A stretch of DNA of 64,000 bases from a virus (Duplodnaviria > Caudoviricetes). Numbering within the stretch: the first letter of the stretch is position 1; the number at the start of each line of letters is the position of its first letter. The position numbers were made by a program, and so were the translations under genes. The notes below the pieces were generated by a model. That model was given only the letters and a program-made list of their open reading frames with translations. It did no database searches and was not told the DNA's origin. This document shows positions 34,258 through 62,464 of the stretch, piece after piece. The DNA lies in the IMG/VR virus record IMGVR_UViG_3300042922_001473, one strand, 5' to 3'.

Positions 34258-34497
34258 AGCCAGTTAAATTTAAATAGCATTTAATTAAATATTAACTGCT
34301 ATTTTTTTATCACTTTCGAAGGATTAACGTGATTTATATTAAATGAATAATCTATAATATATAAGATTTTGAAAAAGGTTATTAATTTAATAATACTTTA
34401 ACAGGATGAAAAAATGAAAAAAATAATTTATTTATTAAAGGAAACACTTTATAACACTAAGAACCTATAATTACTTTATATTAAAAGGAGAATCAAT

Positions 34498-35197: not shown

Positions 35198-36241
35198 TTA
35201 GAGCGTTTTTTTTATTATTGACAAAATATTATATCCATACTTTTCAACCTTTTTTTGTCCAAATCCTTTTATTTGCAAAAGTTCTTCTTTATTCTTAGGC
35301 TTATATTGTATCAATACATCTAATTCTTCATTATTAAATATGAAATATGGTTTAACGCCCTCTGATTTAGAAGTCTCTAATCTATATTTTTTTAACGATT
35401 CATATAATTCAATGTTTATATTTTTTTCGCTATTTTTAATAATGTTAGCACCTGTATTATTCATATTTTCCAAGAAATCATTACTTGTTAACAAGTATTT
35501 ACTGATATAATCTATCTTTATTGGCTTATTATTTTTTATGAGAAAATTAGCAATCTCATACATATATTTTTCAAGTAAATTTTTATCATTTTTTTCATCA
35601 TTTAACTCTTTTTTTAATAAATTCACTACCTGGTCATACTTGTATATGTTTTTTTGTAACTGTTTTGAAGCTTTTATTTTATTGACTATTGTTTTTGTAT
35701 TTGCCATAATAACTGCAGATTTTACTGGTAAAGTTTTTATTAATTCTTCTTTTGTCAGAACTTCATGTAATATTTTCACATGTCTTTCATTTTGAGTAAT
35801 CGGACTATACATTCCTTCTTTTTTAACAAACTTTCCAGAATTATTTTTTATTATTCTAATAAAATCACCATCTGAGGTTATCTCGATATCTCCACTTAGC
35901 TTTTTTGTTTCCAGTACATATATGAATTTTTTCGTAATTATAATAAAGTCAAACTGTGCTACATAGTCACCATATTCGAGCCTAATATCATGAAGACAAA
36001 TCATTGGTATAAATGAATTTTTTAATTCATAATAAACATTCCCCTCCCCTTCTAACCCATATTTAAGAAAATTAATATCTCTATCAATTAACTCTTTCTT
36101 ATTGGTATGGACTTTATTCGAAAGTTCTATTAAATCATTAAGCTGTTCATTTTCCCTGTGAAACTCTTTTAAAAAAATTGTGTTATCAATTGTCACTTTC
36201 CCATTAATTAACCGATAAAGTGATTTTTCGATTAAAGACAA
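35198..36241 (-). CDS. NERD nuclease-domain plus HRDC-domain protein
   Basis: G.EGE..V..EL, HDIRL, AQFDFIII, LETKK, SP..QN.RH; C-terminal LKKYR.....E...PY.IF....L...P.....L..I.GFG..K..KYG. Confidence 0.88.
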   Translation of the reverse strand: MSLIEKSLYRLINGKVTIDNTIFLKEFHRENEQLNDLIELSNKVHTNKKELIDRDINFLKYGLEGEGNVYYELKNSFIPMICLHDIRLEYGDYVAQFDFIIITKKFIYVLETKKLSGDIEITSDGDFIRIIKNNSGKFVKKEGMYSPITQNERHVKILHEVLTKEELIKTLPVKSAVIMANTKTIVNKIKASKQLQKNIYKYDQVVNLLKKELNDEKNDKNLLEKYMYEIANFLIKNNKPIKIDYISKYLLTSNDFLENMNNTGANIIKNSEKNINIELYESLKKYRLETSKSEGVKPYFIFNNEELDVLIQYKPKNKEELLQIKGFGQKKVEKYGYNILSIIKKTL

Positions 36242-36253
36242 TTAACTCACCCC

Positions 36254-36679
36254 CTATTTAAATTTAATAAACTCCTTTTTTGCAATAGCAACAGTTTGTG
36301 CCATTTGTTTTAATACTACTTCAAGATTACTTGTTTTGCAATATGATTTTAAAAATATAGCCTTTCCGTCTTCTATATGAAATGAAACTCCTATATAATC
36401 TGCTGTTAATTCGTTTGTCTTTTTTAACGTACTAAATAAATCATCTTCTGCTTCTTGAATAGATTTCATTACATATACCTCAACTGTATTGTCTTCATTG
36501 TGAAAGCATATAGCAATATCATATACTGTTTCTCTATCTATTAATTCTCCAAATGATATGATTTTTTGTGTATTATTTTTTGTAATTTTGAAGCCACTTT
36601 CCTTATATCCTTCCTTTTTTGCAAACTCTATGAACTGTTCTAACAACCCAACATTTTTATTAGTATTAAATAACTTCAT
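36254..36679 (-). CDS. hypothetical protein, possibly YbjN-like
   Basis: 141 aa; L...NEL...Y..V.F.I..G pattern. Confidence 0.5.
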   Translation of the reverse strand: MKLFNTNKNVGLLEQFIEFAKKEGYKESGFKITKNNTQKIISFGELIDRETVYDIAICFHNEDNTVEVYVMKSIQEAEDDLFSTLKKTNELTADYIGVSFHIEDGKAIFLKSYCKTSNLEVVLKQMAQTVAIAKKEFIKFK

Positions 36680-36883
36680 TATTTCCTCCTATTATTTCAT
36701 TTTATTTATCGTATGTTATTAAAATTGAAATAATAAAATTTAGTGTTTTATGAATGTTTACACTTAAATTATTAATTCCTCTATTTATTGTTATAAGATT
36801 ATTAGAATATAATAGAATATATAAATTTATAAAAAAGGTGTTTATATAATACAAACAAATATAAAAATGAGAGGATAAAAATT

Positions 36884-37195
36884 ATGAAAGTAAAATATGA
36901 TGGATTTGATTGTGAGGTAGTTTTTAATAAATATTATAACGGAAACAATTATATTGAGTTAAGAGATTCAGAAGACGGGCTTCCTTTATTAGTAGCAAGT
37001 ACAAATCTTGAAGCTCCTATGGATTCCGAAATGGTTTTAATTAAAAATTATGATGGAAATGAGGGCTTAGAAAAAGCATTGTTAGAATCTGGTATTTTGG
37101 ATAAATTCATTGCCTATATTCCAAGTGGTTTTGTTTCAATTCCTATGTACAAACTAAGCGAACAAGCCCTGTTGGAGATTAAGAAAAACAGTTAG
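36884..37195 (+). CDS. DUF4313-like hypothetical protein
   Basis: Y.NG...I.L....DG.P....STNL, NEG....L...GI, SGFV..P.YK. Confidence 0.55.
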   Translation: MKVKYDGFDCEVVFNKYYNGNNYIELRDSEDGLPLLVASTNLEAPMDSEMVLIKNYDGNEGLEKALLESGILDKFIAYIPSGFVSIPMYKLSEQALLEIKKNS

Positions 37196-37240
37196 TAGAA
37201 AATTATAAATTTAAAACTTAGAAAAGTTAGGAGAATTGAA

Positions 37241-37711
37241 ATGGAAATACAATTTATCGAAAAAGAAAAATATATAGCACCATATGGAATATCAAGCGAA
37301 GGAGAATATACTCCTGTATTTATGATTAAAGACAAAAAGGAATTTTTTATTGGTAATATAGTAAAACAAATTGGTAATTATAATGGGTATGATGAAAAAA
37401 ATTATCAAAGGCGTATAGAGGAAATAGAAAAAATAAAAAAAACACTGTTAGAAAATAACGGAGCATACTTTAAACAACATGGTAAGTATGAGAATCCTTT
37501 TGATTTATTAAAATGGATAATTAAAAATAATTATACTTTTATAAAACCTAATAGCGAATTATTTAGAGAGTGTAAAGGGTTTATTGATTTTCATGGAAAT
37601 TTAAAAGAATATTCGTCTTCTTTTATGTATAGAATTTATGACGAAATATTTTTAGATAAATTAAAAAATGAAATAGATAAACTTAATACAAAATTGCAAG
37701 TTGAGGTATAA
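37241..37711 (+). CDS. hypothetical protein
   Basis: 156 aa; DFHGNL.EYS..F.YRIYD. Confidence 0.7.
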   Translation: MEIQFIEKEKYIAPYGISSEGEYTPVFMIKDKKEFFIGNIVKQIGNYNGYDEKNYQRRIEEIEKIKKTLLENNGAYFKQHGKYENPFDLLKWIIKNNYTFIKPNSELFRECKGFIDFHGNLKEYSSSFMYRIYDEIFLDKLKNEIDKLNTKLQVEV

Positions 37712-37716
37712 ACATT

Positions 37717-37980
37717 ATGAAAAATTATGAAGCAAATTTATATGATATGAATAACAGGAAAGTTCATTATGTCACGTTAGCAGATAATAATACTATTATA
37801 AAACTCTGTGACAACAATGTTACTGACATTAAATATCATACGCCTTGTGGTGAAGGAGATAGACATTTTGTTGATATTTACTATTCTGACGGAACTGCTA
37901 TGAGGTTATTTAATATTGAACATATTGCATTTTGTGTTCAGGAAGTTGAAAAGAAAAAAGAAACCGATATTCCATTTTAA
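37717..37980 (+). CDS. hypothetical protein
   Basis: 87 aa; I.YH.P.GEGD.HFVD...DG...R.FN. Confidence 0.65.
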   Translation: MKNYEANLYDMNNRKVHYVTLADNNTIIKLCDNNVTDIKYHTPCGEGDRHFVDIYYSDGTAMRLFNIEHIAFCVQEVEKKKETDIPF

Positions 37981-38055
37981 TTATAAAAAGAGAATCAAAA
38001 TATAGCGAAAAACAAAAGAGAGAATTAAAGAATTCTCTCTTTTGTTTTTCATTTT

Positions 38056-40116
38056 TTATAAAATTTTTTGCACTCTTTCAATAGCTTCTATATCACAATC
38101 CATTAATGTCCCCGTAAGATATAAAAAATCCACCCATTCATCGCTTTTAATTGGAGTTAATATATCATCCTTACAATTTATATCTCTATTTCTATCAGAT
38201 GTTTTTATCAGCTTATTAAACCCGTACATAGTTAAATAATCTTTACATCTTTTATCTAATTCATATTCCTTTAAATGTAAATCACTATTACCTGTCATTA
38301 TTCTTCCATGATGCTGTAATAACATATTAAACTGTATTAAATCAACATAAGGTTTTAATACTTGTGCTGAAATTACCGAATGCTTTCTATTCTCAAACAT
38401 TCTGGGATTACCCTTTCTATAAGGAAAATGAGCTAATAAGAATGTTTTTGCGTTTGCCCAAAACTTACCCTGCCATAATACGTCTAATTTTCCAAGGTCA
38501 TGTAAACCTGCAATATTTGAAATCTCTAAAGCATTATTTACTGTATAATCAGAAAAGTTGTCAGCAATTAGTTTCTCATACATTATTTGCTTCACATTAA
38601 ATGAATGAAGTATCCATGCCTCTTCCTTATAATCTTTAAACACCCTTTTACTTTTAACGATATTACTTATAGGAAACTCAATGCATTTACTTCCTGGTTC
38701 TAATCTAAAACCCGTATTGTCATAATAACAATCATACCCTTTTATTATGATGGTACTCCCTATGTCCACTTTATCACATTGTACTTCTTCAATGTTGTTT
38801 AGTTTGTAACGATATAGAGTATTTGTTTTACTTAATTTTTCTAAGTCTGTTAAACTAACTGATACAGTTTGTCTATTGAAGCTACTGACAGCAGGGTTAT
38901 AATCAACAACGATGTTTACATTTTTAATATCCCTGATAAGTTCTTTTTTATTTCCATTTCTTAACTTGTTTTTATGTTTATTTATTTCTCTGTCCGTAAC
39001 ATATTTTTCATAATAAGGATTTAATATTTCATTAATCCATTTCTTTTGGATATCCCATGAGAAATTTATCCCTTGATTAAAAACTATTTTCTTTATTGTT
39101 TCCATTACAACATCTTTATCATAAACACCTTGATAAGCACCTAAATAGCAAATAATCTCTCCTTCTCCACCCCACCTTACAACTCTACCGTCTCTTTGAA
39201 TAAGAGAATCTATAGAGCTTATAGACGAGTACATTCTTGAAGTAGAAATATCCATTCCTGCCTCTATTACCTGAGTTGAAATTAAGATTTTATTGTTTTC
39301 TTTAGAACCTTTGCCAAAGTATTTAATGGTTTTTTTCTCTGCTTTAAACCTATCATCTAAAAGAAGCTTACTATTTAATACGATGCACCTTGATTTATCT
39401 TTAATTTGAAGATAAACTTCAAACAATTCTTTTATGGTATTGCATATAATGATTTGCTTTTTATCGTAATCATTAATCTTCTTAAAATCAAGTTCTTTTT
39501 CATATGTTATTTTGACTTTTCTATTAGCAACTGAAGGTCTATCTGTTATAATAACTTCCATATCATATCTATTTTTTAAAAAATTAATAAGATATTCTGG
39601 CATTGTAGCTGTCATTATAATAAATCTATTTTTCCTGTTTTTTAATGCATCAAGCATTAGTAATGTAGTATTTAATGTTATAGCAGGGTCAAAAAGCTGA
39701 ATTTCATCAAATATCATATTTGATTTAACAACATTTTTTCCCTTTCTAAATGATTGCACACCTAATCCTAAATATCCAGAAAGTACCTGGTCAATTGTTG
39801 TAACAGTATAATCGTTTTGAAGAGTGGTATCTTCTTGTATTGAAGAATGATTTAGTTTATAAGGCTTTTTATTTAATATCTCATTATAACCATCAAGTCT
39901 ATCACAAATAGTCGTAGCAAGTGTTTTTTGAGGAAGAACATATATATGCCTTCCTCCCCATTTATTTGCAATATAATAACTTCCTTCGGTCTTCCCTGAG
40001 CCAGTTGAACTTAACACAAGTAAGTTCTTATCTAAGGGAACTTTTGATAATTTTTCCTGCACTTCTGTCAATTCAACTTTATTTGTCTTAAACAATGTCT
40101 TTAAAAAATCCTGCAT
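38056..40116 (-). CDS. cas3: Cas3 helicase-nuclease with C-terminal HD domain
   Basis: STGSGKT, TTIDQ, FDEIQ, MTAT, STQVIEAGMDIS, QRDGR; C-terminal LHS..V, LHDLGK, KHS, HHG, MDCD. Confidence 0.92.
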   Translation of the reverse strand: MQDFLKTLFKTNKVELTEVQEKLSKVPLDKNLLVLSSTGSGKTEGSYYIANKWGGRHIYVLPQKTLATTICDRLDGYNEILNKKPYKLNHSSIQEDTTLQNDYTVTTIDQVLSGYLGLGVQSFRKGKNVVKSNMIFDEIQLFDPAITLNTTLLMLDALKNRKNRFIIMTATMPEYLINFLKNRYDMEVIITDRPSVANRKVKITYEKELDFKKINDYDKKQIIICNTIKELFEVYLQIKDKSRCIVLNSKLLLDDRFKAEKKTIKYFGKGSKENNKILISTQVIEAGMDISTSRMYSSISSIDSLIQRDGRVVRWGGEGEIICYLGAYQGVYDKDVVMETIKKIVFNQGINFSWDIQKKWINEILNPYYEKYVTDREINKHKNKLRNGNKKELIRDIKNVNIVVDYNPAVSSFNRQTVSVSLTDLEKLSKTNTLYRYKLNNIEEVQCDKVDIGSTIIIKGYDCYYDNTGFRLEPGSKCIEFPISNIVKSKRVFKDYKEEAWILHSFNVKQIMYEKLIADNFSDYTVNNALEISNIAGLHDLGKLDVLWQGKFWANAKTFLLAHFPYRKGNPRMFENRKHSVISAQVLKPYVDLIQFNMLLQHHGRIMTGNSDLHLKEYELDKRCKDYLTMYGFNKLIKTSDRNRDINCKDDILTPIKSDEWVDFLYLTGTLMDCDIEAIERVQKIL

Positions 40117-40502
40117 TATTTCTGTCCTCTTAACTTTTCTAATAATGTCATATCGTAATCCTTTGTAACAAATTCTACTGTTAATTTATGATTACATGCA
40201 TTACCCAAATATGTATAAATTAACTCCATATCTTTAGAAGTAAATTCAGTATTTAAAAAATTATTAATACCATTCAGCATAAATTCATGAAGCCTATCAT
40301 TTCTCCACTTTTGAGAAAAAGGTTCTGATTTGTATGCAGGTCTTGATAACCACTCAATTACTTTACATTCTAAATCTAAAGGTGTTTTACAATCAGATAT
40401 AACAAGATACTCATTGCTACGTTTATGTGCTATAAACTCACCCTTATTATTCATAAAGCTATCTGGAAATGCTTCTATTAAAGCCTTTATACTATTCTCC
40501 AT
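40116..40502 (-). CDS. phage-type hypothetical protein, translationally coupled to cas3
   Basis: AFP.SF.N...EFI, K..EWLSR, IY..LGN..N..L motif; TAATG overlap with cas3. Confidence 0.7.
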   Translation of the reverse strand: MENSIKALIEAFPDSFMNNKGEFIAHKRSNEYLVISDCKTPLDLECKVIEWLSRPAYKSEPFSQKWRNDRLHEFMLNGINNFLNTEFTSKDMELIYTYLGNACNHKLTVEFVTKDYDMTLLEKLRGQK

Positions 40503-40735
40503 TTTTCTTTCTATCCTTCCTTTATCTTATTTATTAAAAAATTCCTTGTTTTTTCAAAATTAACTTTATATTATACAAATAAATTATATTTTTATTATAT
40601 ATGTAAATGATAATCCTCAATGAAAAAGGCACTTAAAAAAAGCCCCTCTTATACTAAAATTTAGAACTACTTATTAATCATATTTCAATTCTATATATAT
40701 TTTTTATCTTTAGAAGTTTTACATTCTAAAGTAAA

Positions 40736-41164
40736 TTAAAACAATAGTTTGATATGTAACTTATTATCGAGTATTTCTACTGTTAAATTATTTTTATTAG
40801 TGCCGATTGTACCTACATATTTAGTATCAGTGCTTAGAACATTTAATATAATTTGCTTAAATAGTTCTTTATTTTCAGCTCTTTTATTATAGTTTTGCAA
40901 AAAACTTATACAATCTGCTATATTGTCTAAATTTGCATTTTTATTTGCAATAATTTCTCCATAAGTAAATTTTGAAATATTACAATGTTCAATTATTTCT
41001 ATTTCATCATTTAAATTAATATATATATTTATATTATTACTTGTTTTTTCTTCTTTTAAGGTTATATTATCATTTTTATGATTTAATATAAAATCTATAG
41101 TTATCTTTTGACAATTAAGCATAAAATAAAAACCATGATTAACAATAGAATCCAAATTTTTCAT
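40736..41164 (-). CDS. hypothetical protein between cas5 and cas3
   Basis: 142 aa, GGGG RBS 12 nt after the cas5 stop. Confidence 0.6.
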   Translation of the reverse strand: MKNLDSIVNHGFYFMLNCQKITIDFILNHKNDNITLKEEKTSNNINIYINLNDEIEIIEHCNISKFTYGEIIANKNANLDNIADCISFLQNYNKRAENKELFKQIILNVLSTDTKYVGTIGTNKNNLTVEILDNKLHIKLLF

Positions 41165-41176
41165 TATATCTACCCC

Positions 41177-41815
41177 TTAAATTTTAATATTTTTGACACA
41201 ACAAATTCTTTTTTCTTGTTTTCTATTTCTTTTTTCACTAAACAAATAAATATCTTCAAATTTTATTTTTGAACTTACCCAGTCATACATTTCGTATAAA
41301 TAACAGTCACCGTCTACTTCTTCTACCCAAGGCATAAGTACGTTTTCTAATTTATCTACCTTTTCAATACTTTCAAGATAAACCATGCTATCTGAGTTTC
41401 CAATCACTTCAATATTGTTTAAATACATTTCAAGATTTGAAATTGAATTATCTATATAGAAGACAATTTTATCTACGTCTACAAACTCCCTTACACCTAC
41501 AGAAGTTATATTCTCTCCGACTTCTAACTCTTCATCTTCCTTTTGTTTTCCATAGTAGGAATTTGAAGCTAATTTAAGCTTTACAGTGTTTTTAACAAAT
41601 TCCCCAGGATATTGCACATAGATTATTGCATTTTTGATTTTATGAAATAATTCCTTTGCTTTTTCTACTCCATCCAATTGAATAACAGAAGATAATATTG
41701 CTCCTCTTAGAGTATAAGTCATTGGATATTCATAACTTCTTGAATTTAAGTGACTATCATTATAATTTTTAAGCGAAAATAGCGATGCTGTTTTGAAAGT
41801 AACTTTACTAATCAT
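41177..41815 (-). CDS. cas5: CRISPR-associated Cas5
   Basis: N-terminal F...SLFSLK......S..YP..YTLRGAI; VREFV; G.SDS loop; context. Confidence 0.8.
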   Translation of the reverse strand: MISKVTFKTASLFSLKNYNDSHLNSRSYEYPMTYTLRGAILSSVIQLDGVEKAKELFHKIKNAIIYVQYPGEFVKNTVKLKLASNSYYGKQKEDEELEVGENITSVGVREFVDVDKIVFYIDNSISNLEMYLNNIEVIGNSDSMVYLESIEKVDKLENVLMPWVEEVDGDCYLYEMYDWVSSKIKFEDIYLFSEKRNRKQEKRICCVKNIKI

Positions 41816-41845
41816 TGATTCCTCCGATAATTTTTCGATAATTTT

Positions 41846-41920
41846 ACTTAAATAATATATTATTAAATGTTAAGTTGTAAGAAACACATATTTTCAATAG
41901 TTTGTAACTAAATATTAAAA
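41846..41920 (-). ncRNA. mini-array / crRNA-like regulatory RNA candidate (two divergent repeats, 15-nt spacer)
   Basis: Repeats at 41891-41920 and 41846-41875 (~20/30 identity for the latter); ATTGAAAA handle; own promoter upstream; seed match to 47349-47359. Confidence 0.6.
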
Positions 41921-41944
41921 GTTTTTTCTTGTATTTATAGTCAA

Positions 41945-41974
41945 TTATATCATATTTTATTGTTTATAGTCAAC
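41945..41974 (-). promoter_or_regulatory. sigma-A promoter for the mini-array and cas5
   Basis: TTGACT-N18-TATAAT with extended TG. Confidence 0.7.
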
Positions 41975-42191
41975 AAGTTAGTCAAAAAATATAATGCCTT
42001 AATGACATTTTTACAGAATAACACTTTGTAAAATATTAAATGTGCTGATTTGTTAGAATCCTATGTTTTGTAATAACAATGTGATAAATATTAATATCAA
42101 ATAATTTTTCTACATTTTTAACTTCAAGTAATAATTTTTAATAACAATATGTTAGATATTAAACTAATTCATAATATTTGATAACAATAAA

Positions 42192-42728
42192 TTATTTTAT
42201 ACTTTCAATTAAAAGTGGCTGAGAAGTAAATGATAATCTTTGACTTGAATATTGATATAACCCATTCCATTCTCCATAAACACCATCTAAATCAAACCAG
42301 AATATTCCTTCTACCCTTTCTCCCCAAGTTCCATCAAGGTCGGCTGATTCAGCTACAAACAATTCTCCACGATAACCTTCGACACTTCCATATGTTAGCT
42401 CTTCCATGGGTGTTAGGTAACTGTTCATACTACTCACTTTTCCTAAAACTTGTATTTCCCTAATAAGTTGTCCATTCTCGGAAATTAGATATAAATATCC
42501 AACACCATCTGGTTGATTTATAAACTCAATTCTACGCTTAATATTCTCTCTTTCTAAACTACGTGTTATCTGAGGTAAATCATCTTCCTTAATTAATTTA
42601 TTAACTGCCTGTTCATTTGCTTTTGAAGCTTGTTCTGTTGTTTTAACCTCCCTTTCAGGTATTTCAATACAACCTACTAATCCTAATAACATAATTGACG
42701 CTAATACTATTGATACTATTTTTTTCAT
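42192..42728 (-). CDS. phage-type lipoprotein embedded in the CRISPR array
   Basis: Lipobox LVGC; SLERENI.RR, GKVSS.NSYLTP, DGTWG...GIFW...G...EW; AAGGAG RBS. Confidence 0.85.
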   Translation of the reverse strand: MKKIVSIVLASIMLLGLVGCIEIPEREVKTTEQASKANEQAVNKLIKEDDLPQITRSLERENIKRRIEFINQPDGVGYLYLISENGQLIREIQVLGKVSSMNSYLTPMEELTYGSVEGYRGELFVAESADLDGTWGERVEGIFWFDLDGVYGEWNGLYQYSSQRLSFTSQPLLIESIK

Positions 42729-43053
42729 TATCGTTCTCCTTTTTTTATTGTTTTATTTTAACAAACTATGAGGAAATACCAGATAGTTCGATTATTTTTA
42801 ATAACAGTGTGTTGAATATTAAGTCTAAACCCGAAACGTCTAAATTTAGCATTTTGAAATATCAGTGTGCTTTATATTTAATAGTTATATGGCAGTATTT
42901 AAATAACAATTATATAGAATGTTTAGCGAATATATTGCAGTTGGTTACTCTAACTCTACAAAATTTCAATAACAGTATGTTAGATATTAAATTCAAATAG
43001 ACGACTCTGAAAATCTGTAATAGATAATTTTTTAATAACACAATGTTGAAATT

Positions 43054-43284
43054 TTATTTTATATTAAATCTTTTACATCTTGTCATAATAAACGCTATAT
43101 TTTCTTTACAGCAGATTTCATACATTTGTTGTGCGATATGACAATTCGTTTCTTTGTTATAGGTCATTTTTTTGCAATATAGACACATACATTCTTCTCT
43201 TCTAATACTATCTGTCGTTTTGTTAGTCCATATTAATTCATTGTAGTGTTCTTCTAATACTGGATTTGTTTTTATTTCACTCAC
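43054..43284 (-). CDS. small Cys-rich protein embedded in the CRISPR array
   Basis: 76 aa; RREECMCLYC..NCHIA...YEIC.......TRC; stop codon lies inside a repeat. Confidence 0.7.
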   Translation of the reverse strand: MSEIKTNPVLEEHYNELIWTNKTTDSIRREECMCLYCKKMTYNKETNCHIAQQMYEICCKENIAFIMTRCKRFNIK

Positions 43285-43763
43285 GCCCCTTACAATTCTT
43301 ATCCTTTTGGATTATCTGATATTTCCAGAAGGCTCACTTTAAAAACATTGTGTTAGATGATAAGCCAATAGTGGCGGTAATTTTCTTACTTTTGCGTAAA
43401 CATTGTTTTAATTACATTATGTTCGTAATATTAAGCAATAAAGAAAAAACATTTTATCAAGTATCTTTTTTTTTATAATACTATGTTAGATATTAAACGG
43501 AAGGAGCGACTATTATGAAGTATCTGTAAGCGTCATTTCAATAACAGTATGTTAGATATTAAACTCAATTGAAAGTGTTGAGGAATTAACTGCCCCCATA
43601 TTTAAATAACAGTATGTTAGATATTAAATTAAAGCATCGACAAGTCCCGAAGCAATAGGAACTGAATTTTAATAACAGTATGTTGGATATTAAACAAGTT
43701 GCTATTTGCATGTAATAAGCTTCCTAATAATTAATTACAATAACACTATGTTAAATATTAAAC

Positions 43764-43929
43764 CCGTCAAAAATATCAGTAATTCCAATACACACAGAAG
43801 CATAATCTTATATATTTTTCTGTCTACCATAATGCTGTTTTTATTTTTCAAATTCTAAGTACCAAATCTACTTAGTATTTGAAAAATAACCCAGTTATAT
43901 TATAAAAAACCGATAGACAGAAATCTTAA
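43764..43929 (-). promoter_or_regulatory. array leader with long hairpin
   Basis: AT-rich region between the cas7 stop and the first repeat; TATAAT at 43899-43904 (- strand); nested inverted repeats. Confidence 0.6.
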
Positions 43930-44937
43930 TTATTTAGAACTGTTTTTAATGTAATTTATGTTTCTTTCAACAATGAAATCAAGAAATTTATCATTAGTAT
44001 ACTGGTCAATCAATGTATCAAAGGCAACAATATCTTTGAACTCTCTGCATACAGATGATAATTTCGAATTAACTTCAATAAAATCATCATTTAAAGCACT
44101 ATACTTTGTAAGTTTTTGGTTTCTGTCAGTTTTTTCAGTTATAATTCCTGATACTTTCCCTAAATGAGGCATATTTGTATTGCACATTGCTCCTTCTATA
44201 TCCATAATCGTATTTCTAAGAGCATTTAAAGCTTTTTTAATTCTTTCTTTTATTTGTTCTTTATCAAGTGTATAAATCATTCTTTCATCATCGAAACCTA
44301 TCCTTCCAAGGTCAAGAGATACTGTTAATGCATATTCAGAAGAACGAATAGGTCTATAGTAAATCATTTGAGCATTTTGGTCTTTATTTGTATTTGCCTC
44401 AGAAGTTGTATCAAATGAACCATCTTCATTTTTAATCTGCTCTTGTTTTGTCTTGCCATTCTTTTCTGATAGGTCTACTCTATTGTACAAAACACTATCA
44501 TTTCTTGTTCCCTCTTTAGCAATAGCCCATGAGAATTGTGCAGTAGTAAATCTTTTTTCATTATTTCCTTTTCCTGCGTTCATAAATCCACATATATCAT
44601 CTATTACACATTCTTTAACCTTATTTCCACTTGCACTAAATCTATCATCTTTTTCTTTAACCTTCCCATTTTTCATTGGTGAGAAGATTTTACAAGTATC
44701 GCAGAGTTCTATTAAATCTGATAAAAGTCTTAAATTCTTACTATAAACATGCTTTAAAAGGTTTCCTGTAATAGCATTTCTAAGTTCACCGTCTTTCAAC
44801 TGTATTGTTCTTGTCTTAACAACATTGCCAATTGATTCCTCATTATTTAAAGCCTCTGCATTTAATTCCATATTAAACATAAAACTCAATTTAAACATAT
44901 TATCATCTATTTCTATGCCATATTTATTATCTATCAT
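43930..44937 (-). CDS. cas7: Cas7 (DevR/Csa2-like)
   Basis: LN...LNNE..IGN...R, NAITG..LKH, LCxxC..C..DD..GF, R....QFSW, Y...V.LDL.RIG. Confidence 0.88.
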   Translation of the reverse strand: MIDNKYGIEIDDNMFKLSFMFNMELNAEALNNEESIGNVVKTRTIQLKDGELRNAITGNLLKHVYSKNLRLLSDLIELCDTCKIFSPMKNGKVKEKDDRFSASGNKVKECVIDDICGFMNAGKGNNEKRFTTAQFSWAIAKEGTRNDSVLYNRVDLSEKNGKTKQEQIKNEDGSFDTTSEANTNKDQNAQMIYYRPIRSSEYALTVSLDLGRIGFDDERMIYTLDKEQIKERIKKALNALRNTIMDIEGAMCNTNMPHLGKVSGIITEKTDRNQKLTKYSALNDDFIEVNSKLSSVCREFKDIVAFDTLIDQYTNDKFLDFIVERNINYIKNSSK

Positions 44938-46268
44938 TATTCAATATCCTCCGATTCTTCCATATCATTAGTTTCAATTTCTTCAATTTCTGTTTCTATA
45001 TCTGTTCCTTTTTTCTTATAATAAACGCTTGAATAAGTTAATATTGCATCCCCTATTGTTCTTACTGCCTCATTATTATCTGCAAAGTTTATAATTTCCT
45101 CTATTTCTTCTTCATTAATACAAGGTCTTTTCATATATTTCCAATGCAATAAACTTATTTGTCGCATAACTTTTGATAAATCTGTAATGGTATTACAGTT
45201 TAATAGTAAAACCTGTATGTCATATCCTATCTTATCTCTTAATAGTGATTTAAGACCATTTGCCACTCTTCTTATACTTTGATTTTTATAAATTTCTTGT
45301 ACTTTATGATTTTGCAATCTCACCAACTCCTCTATCATTTTTTCTTCTAATAATTCTTTTTTCTTAGCATATATCTGTATTAATTTTGAAAAATTATTAT
45401 ATTTTGTATTTAGTAAAAACTCAGAAGTAATTATCTTAACGTCTTCGCTTACTTTAGAATATTCTATTTTCATTAACAATATCTCGCATAAATCAATGCT
45501 TATATCAAGCATAGGCACTTCGAAGTTTAAATCTGCCATTGGCTTCTTGCTTGTGGGAGATAACTGCATATAAAGAGCCTTTTCATAATTGCCTATCATT
45601 AATTCTGATTTAAATTTTATTAAGGTTTTAAGATAAATTTTTGCATTTACAATGGATTTTGAATTTTTTCCAAAGAAAGTAAAGTGCTTTATTTCGCCTG
45701 TTTCCTTATTTGAATATGTCCAGTTATAAGGTCTTTGTATTCTATCTATTTTCTTAGGAAACAGTATTATATTTACTTCATAATCTGTCTTGCAGTATGT
45801 AGTAGCCACTATAAAGCCAAGAAATGATAATTGGTTTTCAAAATCATTAACATTTTTTGCTTTAGGAGACAACCCTCCTCTAATACCTTTAGTGTAAAAA
45901 CAAGTTCCACAGTATGTCGCACCTTCTGATTTACTACCTTTCAAGAATTTATCATCAAGTGTTTCATAATAATTAAATATCATTTCCATGTTTTCTTGTT
46001 TGTCCAAAAATTCATTAAGGTTATTTAATCTAACTTCCTTTTCACTTCTATTTAAGCTTGAATTAATACTCCACATATCATCTACTGATAAGGTGCTTAA
46101 TATCAAATCCTTATAAGCAAAATCTTCTTTTGTCTCTATTACGAAATAAGCTTTTTTATTCGTTAAAACCCAATCTATGCCATTGTCGTCAAGAATTTTG
46201 CATAACCCGTAAGCAATACAAAGTTCCATTATTTCATTTTCTTTTTTTATAACTTTAAATTGCTTCAA
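44937..46268 (-). CDS. Cas8-like large subunit
   Basis: Position between cas6 and cas7; AYGL..IL, KGIR; helical Cas11-like C-terminus; coupled to cas7. Confidence 0.7.
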   Translation of the reverse strand: MKQFKVIKKENEIMELCIAYGLCKILDDNGIDWVLTNKKAYFVIETKEDFAYKDLILSTLSVDDMWSINSSLNRSEKEVRLNNLNEFLDKQENMEMIFNYYETLDDKFLKGSKSEGATYCGTCFYTKGIRGGLSPKAKNVNDFENQLSFLGFIVATTYCKTDYEVNIILFPKKIDRIQRPYNWTYSNKETGEIKHFTFFGKNSKSIVNAKIYLKTLIKFKSELMIGNYEKALYMQLSPTSKKPMADLNFEVPMLDISIDLCEILLMKIEYSKVSEDVKIITSEFLLNTKYNNFSKLIQIYAKKKELLEEKMIEELVRLQNHKVQEIYKNQSIRRVANGLKSLLRDKIGYDIQVLLLNCNTITDLSKVMRQISLLHWKYMKRPCINEEEIEEIINFADNNEAVRTIGDAILTYSSVYYKKKGTDIETEIEEIETNDMEESEDIE

Positions 46269-46280
46269 TTTATCACCCCT

Positions 46281-46958
46281 TTATGCTACTTCCCATAAGA
46301 AGCCATGTCCTGTAGATGTATTTTCCCCTGCTCCACAATTGTATATAGCGTTTATAACGTCATAATCACCCGAAACTTCAAGCATACATTTCCAGCTAAA
46401 TATATGTCCTTTTTTATATTGTTCTACATTTCTTTTTGGATTAATAATATTAAAATTTATATCTCCTTTAATTCCGAGTTTTTCAGCTTTTCTAATTGCA
46501 TTATTCTTTAATCTTAATGCTACCTGCTCCATATCAGAAAGAAGTCTTTCTTCACCTTTACCTGGAATATTAACTATAACTTTAGTTTTAAATAAATATT
46601 TATCCTTTTTAACAAGTTCATTAACAGGTTCTATACTTGCTACAACAATTACCATATCTTCAATTCTTATTAGTTGATTTTTTACTACGCTTTCTATAAA
46701 TTCATTAACAAAGCTATCTTCTCCCGTTAGATAAAAGTGAATATTATCATCTTTTATGAACACATTTGTAAATGTAAATAATCTCATTTCTTTGTTTTTC
46801 AGGTGTAGCATTTCTGCAGATTTAGAATTTATGTTATTTAACAACATGGAATATATCCCATGTGTATAATTCATTTTATTTTGATTTACCTTTTCAATTA
46901 TTTGTCCTGAAATTTTAATTCTCATACACAGTATCCGCTTATACTTCCTTTCCTTCAT
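46281..46958 (-). CDS. cas6: CRISPR endoribonuclease Cas6
   Basis: LFTF, C-terminal GAGENTSTGHG glycine loop; true start probably MRIKIS. Confidence 0.88.
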   Translation of the reverse strand: MKERKYKRILCMRIKISGQIIEKVNQNKMNYTHGIYSMLLNNINSKSAEMLHLKNKEMRLFTFTNVFIKDDNIHFYLTGEDSFVNEFIESVVKNQLIRIEDMVIVVASIEPVNELVKKDKYLFKTKVIVNIPGKGEERLLSDMEQVALRLKNNAIRKAEKLGIKGDINFNIINPKRNVEQYKKGHIFSWKCMLEVSGDYDVINAIYNCGAGENTSTGHGFLWEVA

Positions 46959-47319
46959 ACTTAGCTTTTAATCTTTCATAATCTTTTCGTTCATTTTCTT
47001 CCATTTCTCTTTTATAGTTTTCTATGTGCTTTTTCTCTTGATTTATTCTTTTTTCTTTAAAGTTTTCAATATCTTTATTTGTAACTACTTTCTTTTCTAA
47101 TAAAATATCTATCATAAATTTATTAGAAAATAAGTATTTTTCAGTTATTAATTTATTTGTTACTATAGTTTGCTTATTATCATCTTCACTAATTTCTTGG
47201 GATACACATAAAATACCACCATCAGTTGTTGCTATCATTATATAATCAGCATAAAGTGCCATATTTGTATATGCTATTGTTTTACCTACTAAGTCGTTTG
47301 GGTTATTTATTAAGTACAA
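46939..47319 (-). CDS. phage-type hypothetical protein, first gene of the cas operon
   Basis: TTG at 47319 follows AGGAGG (the track start at 47397 lies in the promoter); DLVGKTI, ER..YERLKAKY. Confidence 0.7.
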   Translation of the reverse strand: MYLINNPNDLVGKTIAYTNMALYADYIMIATTDGGILCVSQEISEDDNKQTIVTNKLITEKYLFSNKFMIDILLEKKVVTNKDIENFKEKRINQEKKHIENYKREMEENERKDYERLKAKYEGKEV

Positions 47320-47365
47320 GTTTTGTTTCCTCCTATATTTTTCTACCATATGTATTTCTATAAAC

Positions 47366-47394
47366 ATTATATCAACTTTGTTGTCTATTGTCAA
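47366..47394 (-). promoter_or_regulatory. consensus sigma-A promoter of the cas6 operon
   Basis: TTGACA-N17-TATAAT with extended TG. Confidence 0.85.
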
Positions 47395-47508
47395 CAATTA
47401 AATTTTATTGACTATTTTTTATATTGGTTTAAACAGAAAAAATTTATTTTTATCTTATTAAAGAATATAATTTAGTATTAAAGAGCAATTGAAAGCGAGG
47501 AGTTTTAA

Positions 47509-47967
47509 ATGAAATTTACCAAAATTATAACTATTATTTCAACATCTTTAGTTATATTATCTACAGGAGTACCTGTGACTATTGAAGGTTTAGAGTTGAC
47601 CATGACAGACAATGCACTAATTAATTCTAATAATATTCTGTCTATAAAAGACAATATTGATATAAAATTAAATCAAATTGTTAATGTTAATCTTTTCAAA
47701 GAGGATGATTTTAAACTGATAAGCCATGATAAACAAGTAAAAATAAGCGAACAGCAATCTTTGTCAGCCTTAAAAGAGAAAGTTATCGACTTAACTGATG
47801 AACTTGAATACTTAGGGTTATTTTCAGACGGAGAAGTTGATTGTTATAAATATAAGGTTATAACAACCATAGAAGATTTATTAAATACTTCTATAGTATT
47901 TGTAAATGCAGATAATAAAAATGTGTATATATCAGGAAAAAATTCTTTTTTGGTTGAAATGAAATAA
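47509..47967 (+). CDS. secreted hypothetical protein
   Basis: Signal-peptide-like N-terminus, GAGGAG RBS. Confidence 0.6.
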   Translation: MKFTKIITIISTSLVILSTGVPVTIEGLELTMTDNALINSNNILSIKDNIDIKLNQIVNVNLFKEDDFKLISHDKQVKISEQQSLSALKEKVIDLTDELEYLGLFSDGEVDCYKYKVITTIEDLLNTSIVFVNADNKNVYISGKNSFLVEMK

Positions 47968-48113
47968 TATTCTTAAAAAAGGTTATACTAAAATAGTCGC
48001 AACTATAAATGATTTATGTTAAAATTAAAAATAGCTTTGACAAATATATGCAATTAATATATATTATAGAAGATATTTTTTAAGGCTTCTACACAGCTAA
48101 CAAGGAGTAATTA

Positions 48114-48977
48114 ATGAACATAAAAGATTTTAATGCGTTTTGCTTTAATATTTCGAAATGGTTAAACCAAAAAGGGGATATGGATATTTTAAATAACAAA
48201 GCCTTTTGGCTTATAATAAAAATAAATGGCGAAACGGTTAATAACAATGAAAAGAATCAAAAAGGAATAAATATTTTCAATGAAATCATTGAACTTAGAG
48301 TGGTAACTATTTCTAAAATAAAATCAGTTTACATGAGATTCAGCGAAAAACTTTTTGACTATTTTTTTAATGATATGAAAAACAGTGAGTTTTACAAAGA
48401 TAGATTTAGATATGTTTATAAATTTTGGTATAAAAGCGATAGCTTTATTATAAATTCATTTAATTTCTTAGATTACTTTTCCAGCGAATGTGAAATAGAA
48501 ATTATCGGAATGGGAACTGGAATTTCTTATCTTAATACTGAAAAACTTACTTTTAAACAAAAAGAGGAATCTTTACTTAATGATTTCAAAGAAATTGACA
48601 ATTGGGATGTTAATACTGAAAATAATAAAAAATTCATAAATTCACTTTTAAGAGAATTATCTATTAGACATTATGTAAATGGTTTTAAAATAAAATTAAT
48701 AAATAACGAAAATAATGAAGAAAATAAGTCCTTTTTATCTTATAATGAAAAAGATGGTTATTCTGTTGTCACTTTAAGCATAGATAAAAAAAATAACTTA
48801 GGTACATTTAGCATATATTCATTGACTAAAGAAATCAGTGAAAATTTATGCAACAATAGATATATAGATTATGTGACAGATGATAATAGTAATATAATAG
48901 AATTTCTCAACAGCGAAAGCGAAACTTTAATTAATGAAGGTTATAATATCTCAATAAAACAAATTAAAACTACTTAA
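48114..48977 (+). CDS. hypothetical protein
   Basis: 287 aa, AAGGAG RBS. Confidence 0.6.
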   Translation: MNIKDFNAFCFNISKWLNQKGDMDILNNKAFWLIIKINGETVNNNEKNQKGINIFNEIIELRVVTISKIKSVYMRFSEKLFDYFFNDMKNSEFYKDRFRYVYKFWYKSDSFIINSFNFLDYFSSECEIEIIGMGTGISYLNTEKLTFKQKEESLLNDFKEIDNWDVNTENNKKFINSLLRELSIRHYVNGFKIKLINNENNEENKSFLSYNEKDGYSVVTLSIDKKNNLGTFSIYSLTKEISENLCNNRYIDYVTDDNSNIIEFLNSESETLINEGYNISIKQIKTT

Positions 48978-49107
48978 ATGTATTCTTTTTTTGTACTTTT
49001 TTAATCAAACCCTATACTTATAATGTAAAAAGATATAAACCCTCCCTTTAGTTATATATTTTAATTATTTTACTATTATAATTAAAAACAGAAGGAGGAT
49101 TAAAAAA

Positions 49108-49779
49108 ATAATAAAATTAAAAAGAATATTATTAGTAACTACAGTTATTTCTATTTTGGTTACAAGTACAGTATTTGGTTCTGCTATAAAGGAAACAATA
49201 TCTGTATTATATGATAAAGGTGTTAGTGTTAAAGTGGATGGTGCTAATTTAAATTTAGGTGATAAAGCTCCAATAATATATAATGGAACTACTTATTTAC
49301 CTGTTAGAGCTGTGGCTGAAGCTATAGGTAAGCCTGTTAATTGGGATAATGATACAAGAACTGTTTATCTTGGAACAATGGACAAATTGACTAAACTTAC
49401 ACCTGAAATGATAAAGGGAGATTGTACCACATTTACAAAACAGACCGATAGATTATCTATTGAAAATTACTCAGTCTTAGAAGGTATACCTTTTGAATGG
49501 TTCGATAATAGTACAGATTTTATAGTTAATAGCAAATTTACAAAAATGAAATTTACCGTTATAGTAAAAAATCCTGATAAGAGAACTGGGGTATATGTAA
49601 AAGCTGGCAAAGAATATAAAGAAGAATTATTTAAGGGAACTTTTGATGAAGGATTAAATACAGCAACTTATGAAGTAGATATTTCAAACAGAGATAAGGT
49701 TCGTGTATATTTTAATACTAACATATTATATGGAGACGAACACCCACAAATTATCATTGGAGATGTTACTTTTCAATAA
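49108..49779 (+). CDS. secreted stalk (copper amine oxidase N-terminal-like) domain protein
   Basis: PIIYNGTTYLPVRAVAEA.G..V.WD..T.TV; the in-frame signal peptide begins at an ATA after GGAGG. Confidence 0.8.
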   Translation: MIKLKRILLVTTVISILVTSTVFGSAIKETISVLYDKGVSVKVDGANLNLGDKAPIIYNGTTYLPVRAVAEAIGKPVNWDNDTRTVYLGTMDKLTKLTPEMIKGDCTTFTKQTDRLSIENYSVLEGIPFEWFDNSTDFIVNSKFTKMKFTVIVKNPDKRTGVYVKAGKEYKEELFKGTFDEGLNTATYEVDISNRDKVRVYFNTNILYGDEHPQIIIGDVTFQ

Positions 49780-49823: not shown

Positions 49824-52800
49824 TTATTCTACTATTATTAAATCAAGCCTATCACTTAATGTTGTTTTTATTTCACTATCAGCTAAAGCATTTACAAGTG
49901 TTCTTGCATTTTGAATATAAACTTCAATTTTGTACTTTTCTGCTTTTTCAACTGCTTTAGTTGCTTCTTGTATTGCTACTGCTTCAGCAGATGGAAATAT
50001 TATTGGTCTTAATACTTCTAATCTATTTAACAATGTTGTCTTAATTTCACCATTTTCCAAAGCATTTACCAGAGCTTCTGCTTTATTAAAGTAATACGTT
50101 GATTTATATTTCTCTGCATAATTTACATAGTTAGTTGCATTATTTATTTGTCTAATTGCGTTCTTTTCTGCAATTAAGTTATTGTAATTAGTTTTTAATG
50201 TTTCAACTCTTTGCAATAAATCTGCTTTTTCAGGTGTGCCATCAGCTATCATGTTTACTCTTTTTATTGCGTATAGAATTGTATACTTAGTAGGAGTTTT
50301 TTCTGCTCTTAAAACAGCGTTGTTAGCATATTTTATTACTGTTGAAGAACTTCCACTACCATCTATTGGCACTATAGCATCAAGCCTATCATCTAAAGCT
50401 TCTTTTTCAGGACTATCAATTAATGCATTTACAGTATCTCTTGCAGTTGAGATATATGGCTCTCTTTTATAGGTTTCCGCAATTTTTACTTTTGTAGTAG
50501 CATTTTTTAATTCCTGTGCTATTGCATTTTCTTCGATTTTTTCTTTTAAAGCTTCCAATCTATCAAGCAATGCTGTTTTTTTAGGAGAATCGTATAATGC
50601 ATTTACAACTTCTTCTGCATCCGTTAAATATGGGTTTCTTTTATATGCTTCTGCAATTTTTACTTTTGTTTCAGCATTTTTAATAGCTTCTGCTGTATTA
50701 GTTTCACCACTTCCTGGATTATCAACAATTACTTGAATTGAATTTAATCTTTCAGTTAATGAAGTCTTTTTTTCGCTGTTTGATAATGCATTAACTAATG
50801 CTCTTGCATTGTCTACGTCAGCTTGTAATTTGCTACCTTCTGCTTTAATAACTGCATTTGTTGCATTTGCTATTATTTGCTGTAATTCTTTTTCAGCATC
50901 AATTATAGCTTGTACGGTGTCAAGTCTTCCGTTTAATGAAGTTTTTACTTCACTGTTTGGAAGTCCATTTACTAATACTCTTGCACTATCTACATCTGTT
51001 TGTAATTTACTACCTTCTGCTTTAACTACTGCATTTGTTGCATTTGCTATTGCTTGTTGTAATTCATTTTCAATATCAATCATAGACTGTACAGCATTTA
51101 ATCGTTCAGTTAATGAAGTCTTTTCAGCTATTTGTGGTAATGCATTTACTAAAGCTCTTGCACTATTTACATCTGCTTGCAATTTACTACCTTCTGCTTT
51201 AACAACTGCATTTGTTGTATTTGCTATTGCTTGTTGTAATTCATTTTCAGCATTTATAATTGCTTGCAAATTATTTAATCTTGTTAATAAATTTACTTTA
51301 AATTTTGTATCTGGTAATGAGCCTACGCTTGCGTTTGCTATATTATAATCATTTTGCATTAATGTATTTTCTGCTAATATTATTGAATTACCAGCATTTA
51401 TTACATTTTGTAGTCTTTGAGCATTTAATGTCATTTGTGATTTACTATCAATATCAATTATTGTTTCTATTATAATTTTTACTTCATTTAATTTTACTTG
51501 AGCTTGTTCATAATTTTCTATTAATAGAAGATTAATAACATCTAAAAACCCATTTATTGTGTCTATATCTTGTGGTAATACTTCTATTTTGTAATAAATA
51601 TATATTTGAACAGCATCAAGTCTTTTACCTAAGTCGGTAATTTCAGGTTCAATAAGTTCATTTACATAAATTCTTGCATTATCGACATCTGTTTGCAACT
51701 TAGACATTTCTGCTTTTTTAACAGATTGCGTTGCTATTTTAACTTTATTTATATATATTTGAAGAATATCCAATCTTTCATTTAATGAAATTTTTTCTAT
51801 AATATTATCTAATAGATTATTGACTAATATTCTTGCATAATCAAGGTCAGTTTGTATATGAGTTCTTTCAGCTTTTTCAACTGCTTGAATAGCAAGTGCA
51901 AGATAATCTACAGGTATTGTATTAACTCTTTCTTCTAATGAAGGTTTTATTGTTTCAGTATATTGATTGTCAGGCAAGTTACTAATCAACTCTTGTGCTT
52001 TATTAATATCTTCTGGCAATTTTGTTTCTTCAGCTTGTTCTATTGCCCTTATAACTTCCTGTATCTGTTCTTTAATATCAACTATTTCTTGAATTACTTC
52101 TATTTCTTGCGTTAAAGTTTCTTTAGATTCGTGAGAATCAGGCAATATATTAATCCATTCATTTGCTTCATTAACATCTTCTTGATTATTAGTTTCTTCT
52201 GCTATTGTTATAGCATCTTGAATTTTATCTACTATTATCTCATTTTTCAATTCTGTGTTAGGAAGTTCTGCAATTGCTTCAACTGTATCAAGTTTCATAG
52301 CATTAAAAATTAATGTTAACTCATGTGCTATTTCGATAAATGTAACCTTATCTTCGCCTTCTGGTAAATTAACTACATCTGCATTAATAGTATTTATAGT
52401 TGTCTCAGCAATAACCATATCTCCAATTAAAATTTGTGTAATAAAATCATTACTGTTATTTACTAAACTGTTTAAAGCTTTTAAATATGCTTTATCTTCT
52501 CCTTCTGGTAAAGAATTTAATAATACATCTATATCTACTATAGTCGCAAGTGGTAATTTATTAATCATGAAGGTTTTTATATTGACAGAGCTTGTTAAAT
52601 ACATTGGCATTTCAATTTTTAAAGATGCAATATTTGCAAATGGCACAACTCTATTTTTTAAATTATTAATTAATTCTTCTAATGCTTTTTTAATATCTAT
52701 ATATCTTTGAACATTATTTAGTTGCTCTAATAAATATGTTTTTTCTATACTATCTGATAAACTATTTACTAATGCAAAAGCATTATCAATATCATCTTGT

Positions 52801-58628: not shown

Positions 58629-58769
58629 TTGTTTATATTTCCTCCTTTTTTAATTTATTTTTAAAAACAATATTATATATTACTATTAAATTATCAATTA
58701 TATTCAAATTTCAGCTCTAAACCTTGATAAAATAAAAAAGAGAACGCCCTGTGACATTCTCTCTTTTCA

Positions 58770-61700: not shown

Positions 61701-62000
61701 TGCAAAAGTTTGATAGTTTCCTACTACCACTTGCTTCACATTTGTTAATTCAGGAATAATTACTGGAGATAATTGGTCTATAGTATTACCAATGCCTAAT
61801 TGTCCATAATTATTTTGTCCCCAAGCCAACACTGTTCCATCACTTTTTAATATTAATGTGTGATTATAACCTGATATTATTTTTGGTTCTACACTTAAAG
61901 CAGAACTTTCTATTGGATTAGATAAAACATTTGTTAACATCATTAAAAAGATTAACAATGCTAACAATTTTCTTTTTAAATTGTTAATAATTTTATTCAT
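58770..62000 (-). CDS. secreted RCC1/BLIP-II beta-propeller protein with the same helical C-terminus
   Basis: Seven G..HSLAL.EDGTV..WG.N..GQLG repeats; tail near-identical to 49824-58628. Confidence 0.92.
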   Translation of the reverse strand: MNKIINNLKRKLLALLIFLMMLTNVLSNPIESSALSVEPKIISGYNHTLILKSDGTVLAWGQNNYGQLGIGNTIDQLSPVIIPELTNVKQVVVGNYQTFALMEDGTVKAWGYNLTGQLGIENKLNQYSPITVPNLINVKQIASGSDHVLALLEDGTVKSWGINYSGQLGIGNTTFKTTPTIVSGLTNVKQIKAGAYHSLALLEDGTVKVWGDNDSGELGIGNTISQKSPILIPGLSNVKQIEAGIAHSLVLHEDGTVKGWGENGNGQITASNLYDKLSPVIITGLINVKQLAGGQNHSLALLEDGTIYIWGYNQYGQLGIEDLPTNMVTQKRIIPDIANVNQITAGSSYTAVLLDDGTVKTWGQNNYGQLGIGNTDNQLSPVIVPDLIIPQTGGNTEELNIAKNAVIQTEASKLQTDLDSARVLVNALPTGSDKVSLTNRLNIVQAYIDYQEAVRIATLAVEKAEITILQSDVDSARVLINVLVNPEKADLTTRLDVVDYVINCVIDATLAVEKAETTKLQADVDSARTLVNALNNSISQKASLLTRLNDLQIAIINKQIQDLIDRIDEILTNPSAEELTELEDIVNDLDDLINQLPNSAEKDEILATQILRATEAVVKAENSKTQIDVDSAKILVNTLPNITEKSLLSERLDTVQAIIDTKNELQQAIANATSAVVKTENSKLQADVNSARALVDALPQITEKTSLTERLNTVQSMIDIEKELQQAIANATNAVVKAEGSKLQADVDSARVLVNALPNITEKTSLHQRLDAVQLIIDNPEGGETNAPEAIRIAEMKVKIAETYKRNPYVTNAEDTVNALYDSPEKTALLDRLEALKALIEENTLAQELKNATTKVKIAETYKREPYISTARDVVNALVDSPEKEALDDRLNAISPSDGSESSSTTVKFAIIAVTRAEKTPTKYTIQYAIKKVNMIADSTPEKADLLQRVEILKINYNNLIAEKNSIVQIENATNYVNYAEKYKSTYYFNKAQTLVSSLENGEIKTTLQGRLDILQSVIFPSAETIAMQEATKAVEKAENYKIEAYIQKAKMLVDALVESHEKTDLTNRLNLIVIE

Positions 62001-62135
62001 TTTTTATTTTTTCTCCTTTTTTTTATTTATTAATATTTAATAATATACAAATAATAATAAATTTATAATTCAATAAAAGCTGACTTATTTTTGCAAAATT
62101 TAATTTATAATATAAAAAACAGAAACAAGGAGTTT

Positions 62136-62428
62136 ACATATATTAACAACTGGTTTTTTGTGGACAAGTTGTCATAGAAAGATTGAACGAAAATGAAAAA
62201 ATACATATATAATCTATTTTAATAATAGAAAAAAGCATCACATGTAGGTGTATCTTTTTTAAAAGAAAAATTAGAAGGTTATGAAATAAATATTGATTGG
62301 GAAACAGTATATGAAAATGGAATAGTTGAATTTGTAATAGATTATAAACCCATAATCGTTATAACATCAATTATGAAAATAATTGAAAATCTAAATGATT
62401 TAGTAACTTTTAAAGAATATGTAAAATA
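62136..62428 (+). pseudogene. degraded hypothetical gene
   Basis: AAGGAG RBS without ATG; coding-like frame (..HVGVSFLKEKLEGYEINIDWETVYENG..EYVK*) broken upstream. Confidence 0.4.
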
Positions 62429-62464
62429 AAAGAGAGAAGATTTTAACCTTCTCTCTTTTATTTT

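Follow-up and report, generated by a model that had tools for sequence, protein, structure and literature searches.

Validated CreA RNAs have been described as using precisely guide positions 1-5 and 7-11 as their seed (PMC8501985), and in the I-B system of Parageobacillus (Bacillota) 11- and 15-nt guides, within a range of 11-15 nt, repress without cleavage (PMC10551041). In I-F1, a short guide from a mini-array causes repression but no interference, and Shmakov et al. reported mini-arrays targeting the cas6 promoter in I-B and none in bacterial I-A, with spacers typically of 20-60 bp (10.1101/2023.03.03.530964). CreR is known from I-B, I-E and V-A systems, with I-A not listed (Liu et al., 10.1101/2023.03.10.532045), and a limited literature search found no published case of a regulatory guide in type I-A. 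The window, by which we mean the whole 64-kb stretch of DNA analysed, contains a mini-array with its own predicted promoter immediately upstream of cas5. We consider it probable that this mini-array acts as a CreR-type autorepressor in a type I-A system that has no adaptation genes in the window and is likely to be carried on a large mobile element. CRISPR self-regulation is an already known mechanism; what is probably new is its occurrence in bacterial I-A and the placement of the guide at the head of a cas5-cas3 transcript.

The cas locus, its subtype and its carrier

The cas locus is encoded on the minus strand in the order orfX, cas6, cas8, cas7, a degenerate array, the promoter P2, the mini-array, cas5, two unrelated ORFs and cas3 (Table 1). 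One ORF, orf142, has no family match and is missing from related cas loci, and unrelated phage-type genes are inserted throughout. Cas8a, Cas5a, Cas7a/Csa2 and a CCN PAM (the PAM taken from relatives) were found as markers of type I-A, and the nearest solved relatives of Cas7 and Cas3 are annotated as Cas7a/Csa2 and their partner Cas3, while no solved relative was found for the HD part of Cas3. Judged by these proteins, the system is a bacterial variant of type I-A. The original prediction had set its PAM in the context of both I-A and clostridial I-B systems; of the two, the system belongs to I-A. In archaea, type I-A systems are laid out with separate Cas3' and Cas3'' proteins and a Csa5 small subunit. 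In contrast, the window encodes a single helicase-HD fusion with the HD domain last, and the separate Cas3'/Cas3''/Csa5 layout is not seen.

No cas1, cas2 or cas4 was seen within the 64-kb window. The same compact bacterial I-A variant (38056-46958 of the window and its relatives) is found on Bacillota megaplasmids and chromosomes, with no cas1/2/4 nearby. A protein of the window is recorded on a 534,699-bp contig, and relatives are located on the 502-kb Bt407 and a 404-kb C. perfringens megaplasmid, on metagenomic contigs of 517-523 kb and on some chromosomes; a cas1 match is absent from two of the three host genomes tested. The carrier is likely to be a large mobile element. Two of the plasmid-borne loci, L003 (Bt407 plasmid) and L004 (pJFP838A), have no array within 9 kb, and cas3, cas6 and cas8 of L004 are split or frameshifted. 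Beyond the cas locus, positions 49824-64000 (minus strand) of the window encode large surface proteins arranged in tandem, which carry LRR_5 repeats and have 59-aa repeats in common.

The main array is decayed and AT-rich along its whole length, with many repeats retaining 18-21 of 29 positions and with further short spacers of 12 and 15 nt. Two intact ORFs lie between its repeats, at 43054-43284 and 42192-42728 (minus strand); a homologue of the lipoprotein is encoded on the Bt407 megaplasmid. The 15-nt spacer starts from 42896 within 42941-42882 (minus strand); its positions 1-5 and 7-11 match a CCA-flanked site that lies in the spacer before it, 45 nt upstream. This is the same 45-nt geometry as at 7516/7561 of the related locus L020. 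The repeat ahead of the 15-nt spacer forms a poor hairpin, no promoter is apparent, and the match may reflect either local duplication or a guide able to stop transcription across the array. An isolated repeat-like 29-mer, ranked 8th by the repeat profile, is located 7.5 kb from the array at 34268-34296 (minus strand); its hairpin is lost and it has no PAM-flanked target in the window.

It had been proposed to read the PAM from protospacers of the canonical spacers. The window's own spacers gave no convincing protospacer, and the PAM comes instead from relatives with Cas7 55-67% identical. Array spacers of L001 and L019 (the latter locus with two tandem copies of the I-A system and arrays that match Geobacillus phages) match Bacillus and Geobacillus phages and plasmids, and four of the five protospacers are flanked by CCN (CCA, CCA, CCG and CCG), the fifth by TCA with seed mismatches. 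The spacers of L002 gave weak matches only and were left out. In the CCN cases the spacer begins directly after the 8-nt handle, and the same register sets CCA directly before the target in the window.

The mini-array and its match at the cas6 operon promoter

The mini-array is the promoter-separated tail of the long degenerate array, 92 nt after the last array repeat, and consists of one spacer between degenerate repeats akin to those of the cognate array; it has no Rfam match. With a repeat profile built from relatives only, psiR1 ranks 27th and psiR2 15th among approximately 128,000 positions, outscored by roughly a dozen genuine repeats of the array, and the claim of two highly diverged repeats just upstream of cas5 is thereby confirmed. 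The 5' handle of psiR1 is ATTGAAAA (41898-41891), and departs from the canonical handle only at the variable last base. Repeats at 41919-41891 and 41874-41846 leave a spacer of only 16 nt, so that guide position 17 falls inside psiR2 and the matches at positions 15-17 carry little weight. Placing the second repeat at 41860-41831 instead would lengthen the spacer to 30 nt; this alternative was rejected as its profile score is far below that of 41874-41846. The minus-strand promoter predicted for the mini-array was recovered 1 nt from its proposed position: P2, predicted from its match to the sigma-70 consensus at 11 of 12 positions, lies 24 nt upstream of psiR1 and has no adaptation leader. Transcription from P2 is predicted to start at about 41937.

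Table 1 Positions of the mini-array, its target site and the genes of the surrounding cas locus.
Feature	Positions	Strand	Description
P2, predicted promoter of mini-array and cas5(-orf142-orf128-cas3)	41944-41973	-	TTGACT-N18-TATAAT, extended -10; consensus match only
psiR1, degenerate repeat	41891-41919	-	18/29 vs canonical; both ends, 8-nt handle and 5-bp hairpin kept; three compensatory pairs
psiS, 16-nt guide	41875-41890	-	canonical spacers of the locus are 35-40 nt
psiR2, degenerate repeat	41846-41874	-	19/29; 5-bp hairpin kept; one compensatory pair; ends 30 nt before cas5 start
P1, predicted promoter of orfX-cas6-cas8-cas7	47366-47394	-	TTGACA-N17-TATAAT, 12/12, extended -10
PAM CCA	47346-47348	+	about +12 to +14 of predicted P1 transcript; CCN family PAM from relatives
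Seed target (guide 1-5, 7-11)	47349-47359	+	about +11 to +1 of predicted P1 transcript
orfX	46939-47319	-	126-aa phage-type protein, first gene under P1; phrog_11750 E 2e-29; overlaps cas6 start region
cas6	46281-46925	-	longest ORF start 46958; gene-caller start 46925
cas8a	44937-46268	-	I-A large subunit; PADLOC Cas8a E 1e-88
cas7	43930-44937	-	DevR/Csa2 type; PADLOC Cas7a above Cas7b
Main degenerate CRISPR array	42012-43762	-	~15 repeats; interrupted by 76-aa ORF and 178-aa lipoprotein ORF
cas5	41177-41815	-	Cas5a, I-A; first coding gene of predicted P2 transcript; PADLOC E 1e-15
cas3	38056-40116	-	helicase first, HD domain last; catalytic motifs present

The canonical repeat forms a small stem in which positions 10-14 pair with 18-22, ending at the cut expected for an 8-nt handle. 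Despite their divergence, psiR1 and psiR2 each keep all five stem pairs, and they are the only repeats of the window below 21/29 identity with the full 5-bp stem. Across the alignment of the window's repeats, three stem pairs are changed on both sides, a number matched in 0-2 of 500 shuffles and with slid controls lower, and other complementary versions of the stem are present in the repeats of relatives. For psiR1, minimum-energy folding predicts this stem. Both hairpins have little stability (about -1 kcal/mol or unfolded, with z near 0), and the chance of stem retention in psiR1 is 0.07 given the mutated positions, or 0.01 with random positions.

The handle, the guide reading from 41890, the target at 47349-47365 (plus strand), the adjacent CCA and the pattern of matches were all found as originally described. 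Guide positions 1-5, 7-11 and 15-17 match the target and positions 6 and 12-14 do not, with the first mismatch at position 6, and at the seed target the guide pairs with the non-template strand of P1. The consensus promoter beside the site is likewise as described, except that the first gene behind it is orfX, followed by cas6-cas8-cas7. P1 and P2 are the two best sigma-70 promoters in 36000-49500 (13.5 kb), and both have an extended -10. A near-palindrome of 14 bp is present at 683-696, 1222-1235 and 47381-47394, with three half-sites around P2 (41985, 41973 and 41944), and promoters of a similar kind lie ahead of cas genes in L003, L015 and L019.

A count of the PAM and seed pattern, which the original prediction had proposed genome-wide, found this single site in the 64-kb window, with 0.03 expected. 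The P1 region has three CCN sites, and a random 11-mer guide matches one of them with a probability of 3-5e-5; allowing for approximately 20 repeat-adjacent guides, the probability of a chance match is about 1e-3. The matching guide lies downstream of the sole strong internal promoter. P2 itself has no PAM-flanked guide match and was rejected as a target, as was a seed-only match at 12009 (minus strand), which is flanked by GAA. A pooled scan near cas starts in 15 loci gave 2 perfect seeds in 17,574 guide-CCN pairs, compared with 1 in 38,908 control-PAM pairs. This excess is small, and the case therefore rests on position and architecture, as opposed to a family-wide enrichment.

Guides and repeats in related loci

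The three nearest Cas7 relatives share 66-68% identity, and for two of them the contig stops short of the array. Searches with Cas7, Cas5 or Cas3 found no closer relatives in the viral or genome contigs searched, Cas7 has no match in the phage collection, and in the Cas7 tree the window has no supported sister group. Among the relative loci retrieved there is no orthologous guide, and hence no guide-promoter covariation. A 10/10 seed match was found in one of 14 relative loci (L020), by way of a different guide: at 7516-7580, identical in L021 and L022, a short array precedes cas6, and its first spacer, 18 nt long, has a 16-nt match to a CCT-flanked site lying 45 nt upstream. No clear promoter was found for this short array, which is a candidate for an analogous second autorepressor in the same Cas family; the match could also be explained by a 45-nt local duplication. 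A 9/10 CCT-flanked match in L010 and L017 lies inside the repeat itself, is probably a 14-nt duplication, and was not counted.

A repeat is located 19-30 nt before cas5 in five other loci (L016, L023, L034, L035 and L037), as a lone repeat in L037, and many relatives with a repeat just before cas5 have no such guide. The pre-cas5 repeat is thus common in the family and not special to the window's guide. Arrays or lone repeats end 16-150 nt before the starts of cas5, cas3 or cas6 in the same five loci and in L019, L001 and L015. Cas6-cut leaders on cas mRNAs, with an 8-nt handle left near the ribosome-binding site, look like a trait of the family, which weakens any special coupling to the window's guide and makes processing at psiR2 plausible.

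Proposed autorepression, its alternatives and described systems

In the mechanism we favour, P2 would transcribe psiR1, the 16-nt spacer, psiR2 and cas5, probably continuing to cas3, and Cas6 would cut at the base of each hairpin to release an RNA of approximately 45 nt with an 8-nt handle, the 16-nt spacer and a 21-nt 3' handle. Cascade loaded with this RNA would recognise CCA and pair through guide positions 1-5 and 7-11 with about +1 to +11 of P1, and would so keep orfX-cas6-cas8-cas7 from being transcribed. With its R-loop short and partial, the complex is not expected to trigger Cas3. In archaeal I-A systems, Cas3 is a stable component of Cascade and becomes active only once the R-loop is full; a short guide that does not cleave would be in keeping with this. 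The resulting negative feedback would set the levels of Cas6, Cas7 and Cas8, and would be relieved when anti-CRISPRs or array crRNAs, for which the main array is the proposed source, draw Cascade off. The CreR-like autorepression put forward in the original prediction came through every sequence test that was run, namely a CCN PAM in the right register, a unique site at the predicted transcription start, both hairpins and the CreA seed.

It is somewhat unlikely, if still to be taken seriously, that decay and chance account for these observations, with the repeats an eroded array tail, a general promoter of the element inserted to drive cas5-cas3, and the 10-base seed beside CCA a coincidence in AT-rich DNA. 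Many array repeats are equally decayed, other short spacers occur among them, a repeat directly before cas5 is common in relatives, the seed match is not conserved there, and the control-PAM match indicates that 10/10 seeds do arise randomly in such scans. However, the probability after multiple testing is low, the match coincides with the predicted transcription start of the strongest promoter, the handle is intact, and full stems are not what the similarly eroded repeats display. Even less easily accommodated is an effect at the RNA level only, which we regard as very unlikely: Cas6 would set the 5' end, stability or translation of the cas5 mRNA, and P1 and P2 would be under a protein repressor at the -35 near-palindrome. 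The pre-cas5 repeats of the five loci named above, the lone repeat of L037 included, are consistent with this, as is the overlap of the near-palindrome with the -35 of P1 and of two other promoters (683, 1222 and 47381), and a protein operator is possible, its statistics being marginal (4 occurrences compared with 1.6 expected, 5 of 100 shuffles as high, and a motif that includes the -35 consensus itself). Such an effect would nevertheless leave the 16-nt spacer and the PAM-flanked seed match unexplained, and it can coexist with repression by the guide.

Repression of P1 by the guide is also a step of an addiction or anti-anti-CRISPR module of the CreA/CreP type, and the probability of such a module overlaps with that of autorepression. 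The guide would here silence a toxic, phage-derived orfX, and loss or inhibition of Cascade would release OrfX together with more Cas proteins. We consider this improbable. The targeted promoter has orfX as its first gene, OrfX is of phage origin, and none of the related cas loci retrieved contains it. CreP is likewise a captured phage protein (10.1101/2024.01.05.574328), and OrfX may be a CreP-like toxin. On the other hand, OrfX has no toxin family, PADLOC match or KilA-C domain, and nothing in the PDB matches its predicted fold (pLDDT 87) at E<=0.001, the single match being viral and uncharacterised. Its homologues, in SPbeta-like and AR9/PBS1 phages, occur in ordinary runs of small phage genes without cas genes, and with phage-type genes inserted all over the locus, orfX may be a passenger. 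Distinctly improbable is the most far-reaching version, in which this is the first regulatory guide in an element-borne bacterial I-A system and balances a split operon, each Cas5/Cas3 transcript yielding one repressor of the Cas6/Cas8/Cas7 operon, while the same switch restrains OrfX as a new phage-derived toxin and the element is addicted to its Cascade.

If autorepression by the mini-array is correct, crRNA-like control would reach into bacterial I-A, for which the published survey had no mini-arrays to report, and into a compact system that lacks adaptation genes. The circuit would also be a small one that can be tested, in which the guide occurs naturally at 16 nt, the PAM is CCN and the leader of a cas mRNA is where the guide is released. 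As the mechanism is established, the advance would be one of range and wiring, or more than that should OrfX turn out to be a toxin.

Guide-promoter covariation aside, the mini-array appears to have all the features of CreR (10.1101/2023.03.10.532045) that can be tested in sequence: it is a degenerate two-repeat mini-CRISPR with its own promoter and a conserved 8-nt 5' handle, and it has a partial, PAM-flanked match in or next to a cas effector promoter. Unlike CreR, it belongs to I-A, lies 5.4 kb downstream inside a split operon where it would head the cas5 transcript, and has a 16-nt spacer in an adaptation-less, apparently mobile system. With the mini-arrays of Shmakov et al. (10.1101/2023.03.03.530964) it shares a cas6-operon promoter target, as in I-B, a PAM-flanked seed and a mismatch at position 6, and with their validated I-F1 example a spacer shorter than canonical. 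What sets it apart from those mini-arrays is an upstream repeat that falls short of near-canonical (18/29) and its place at the end of a decayed array, in the same orientation as the cas genes. CreTA and CrePA differ in that OrfX has no toxin similarity and would be co-transcribed with cas6-cas8-cas7; the window nevertheless resembles their CreA (PMC8501985; 10.1101/2024.01.05.574328) in its 1-5/7-11 seed, in its two highly diverged repeats and in a target promoter that drives a small captured phage gene.
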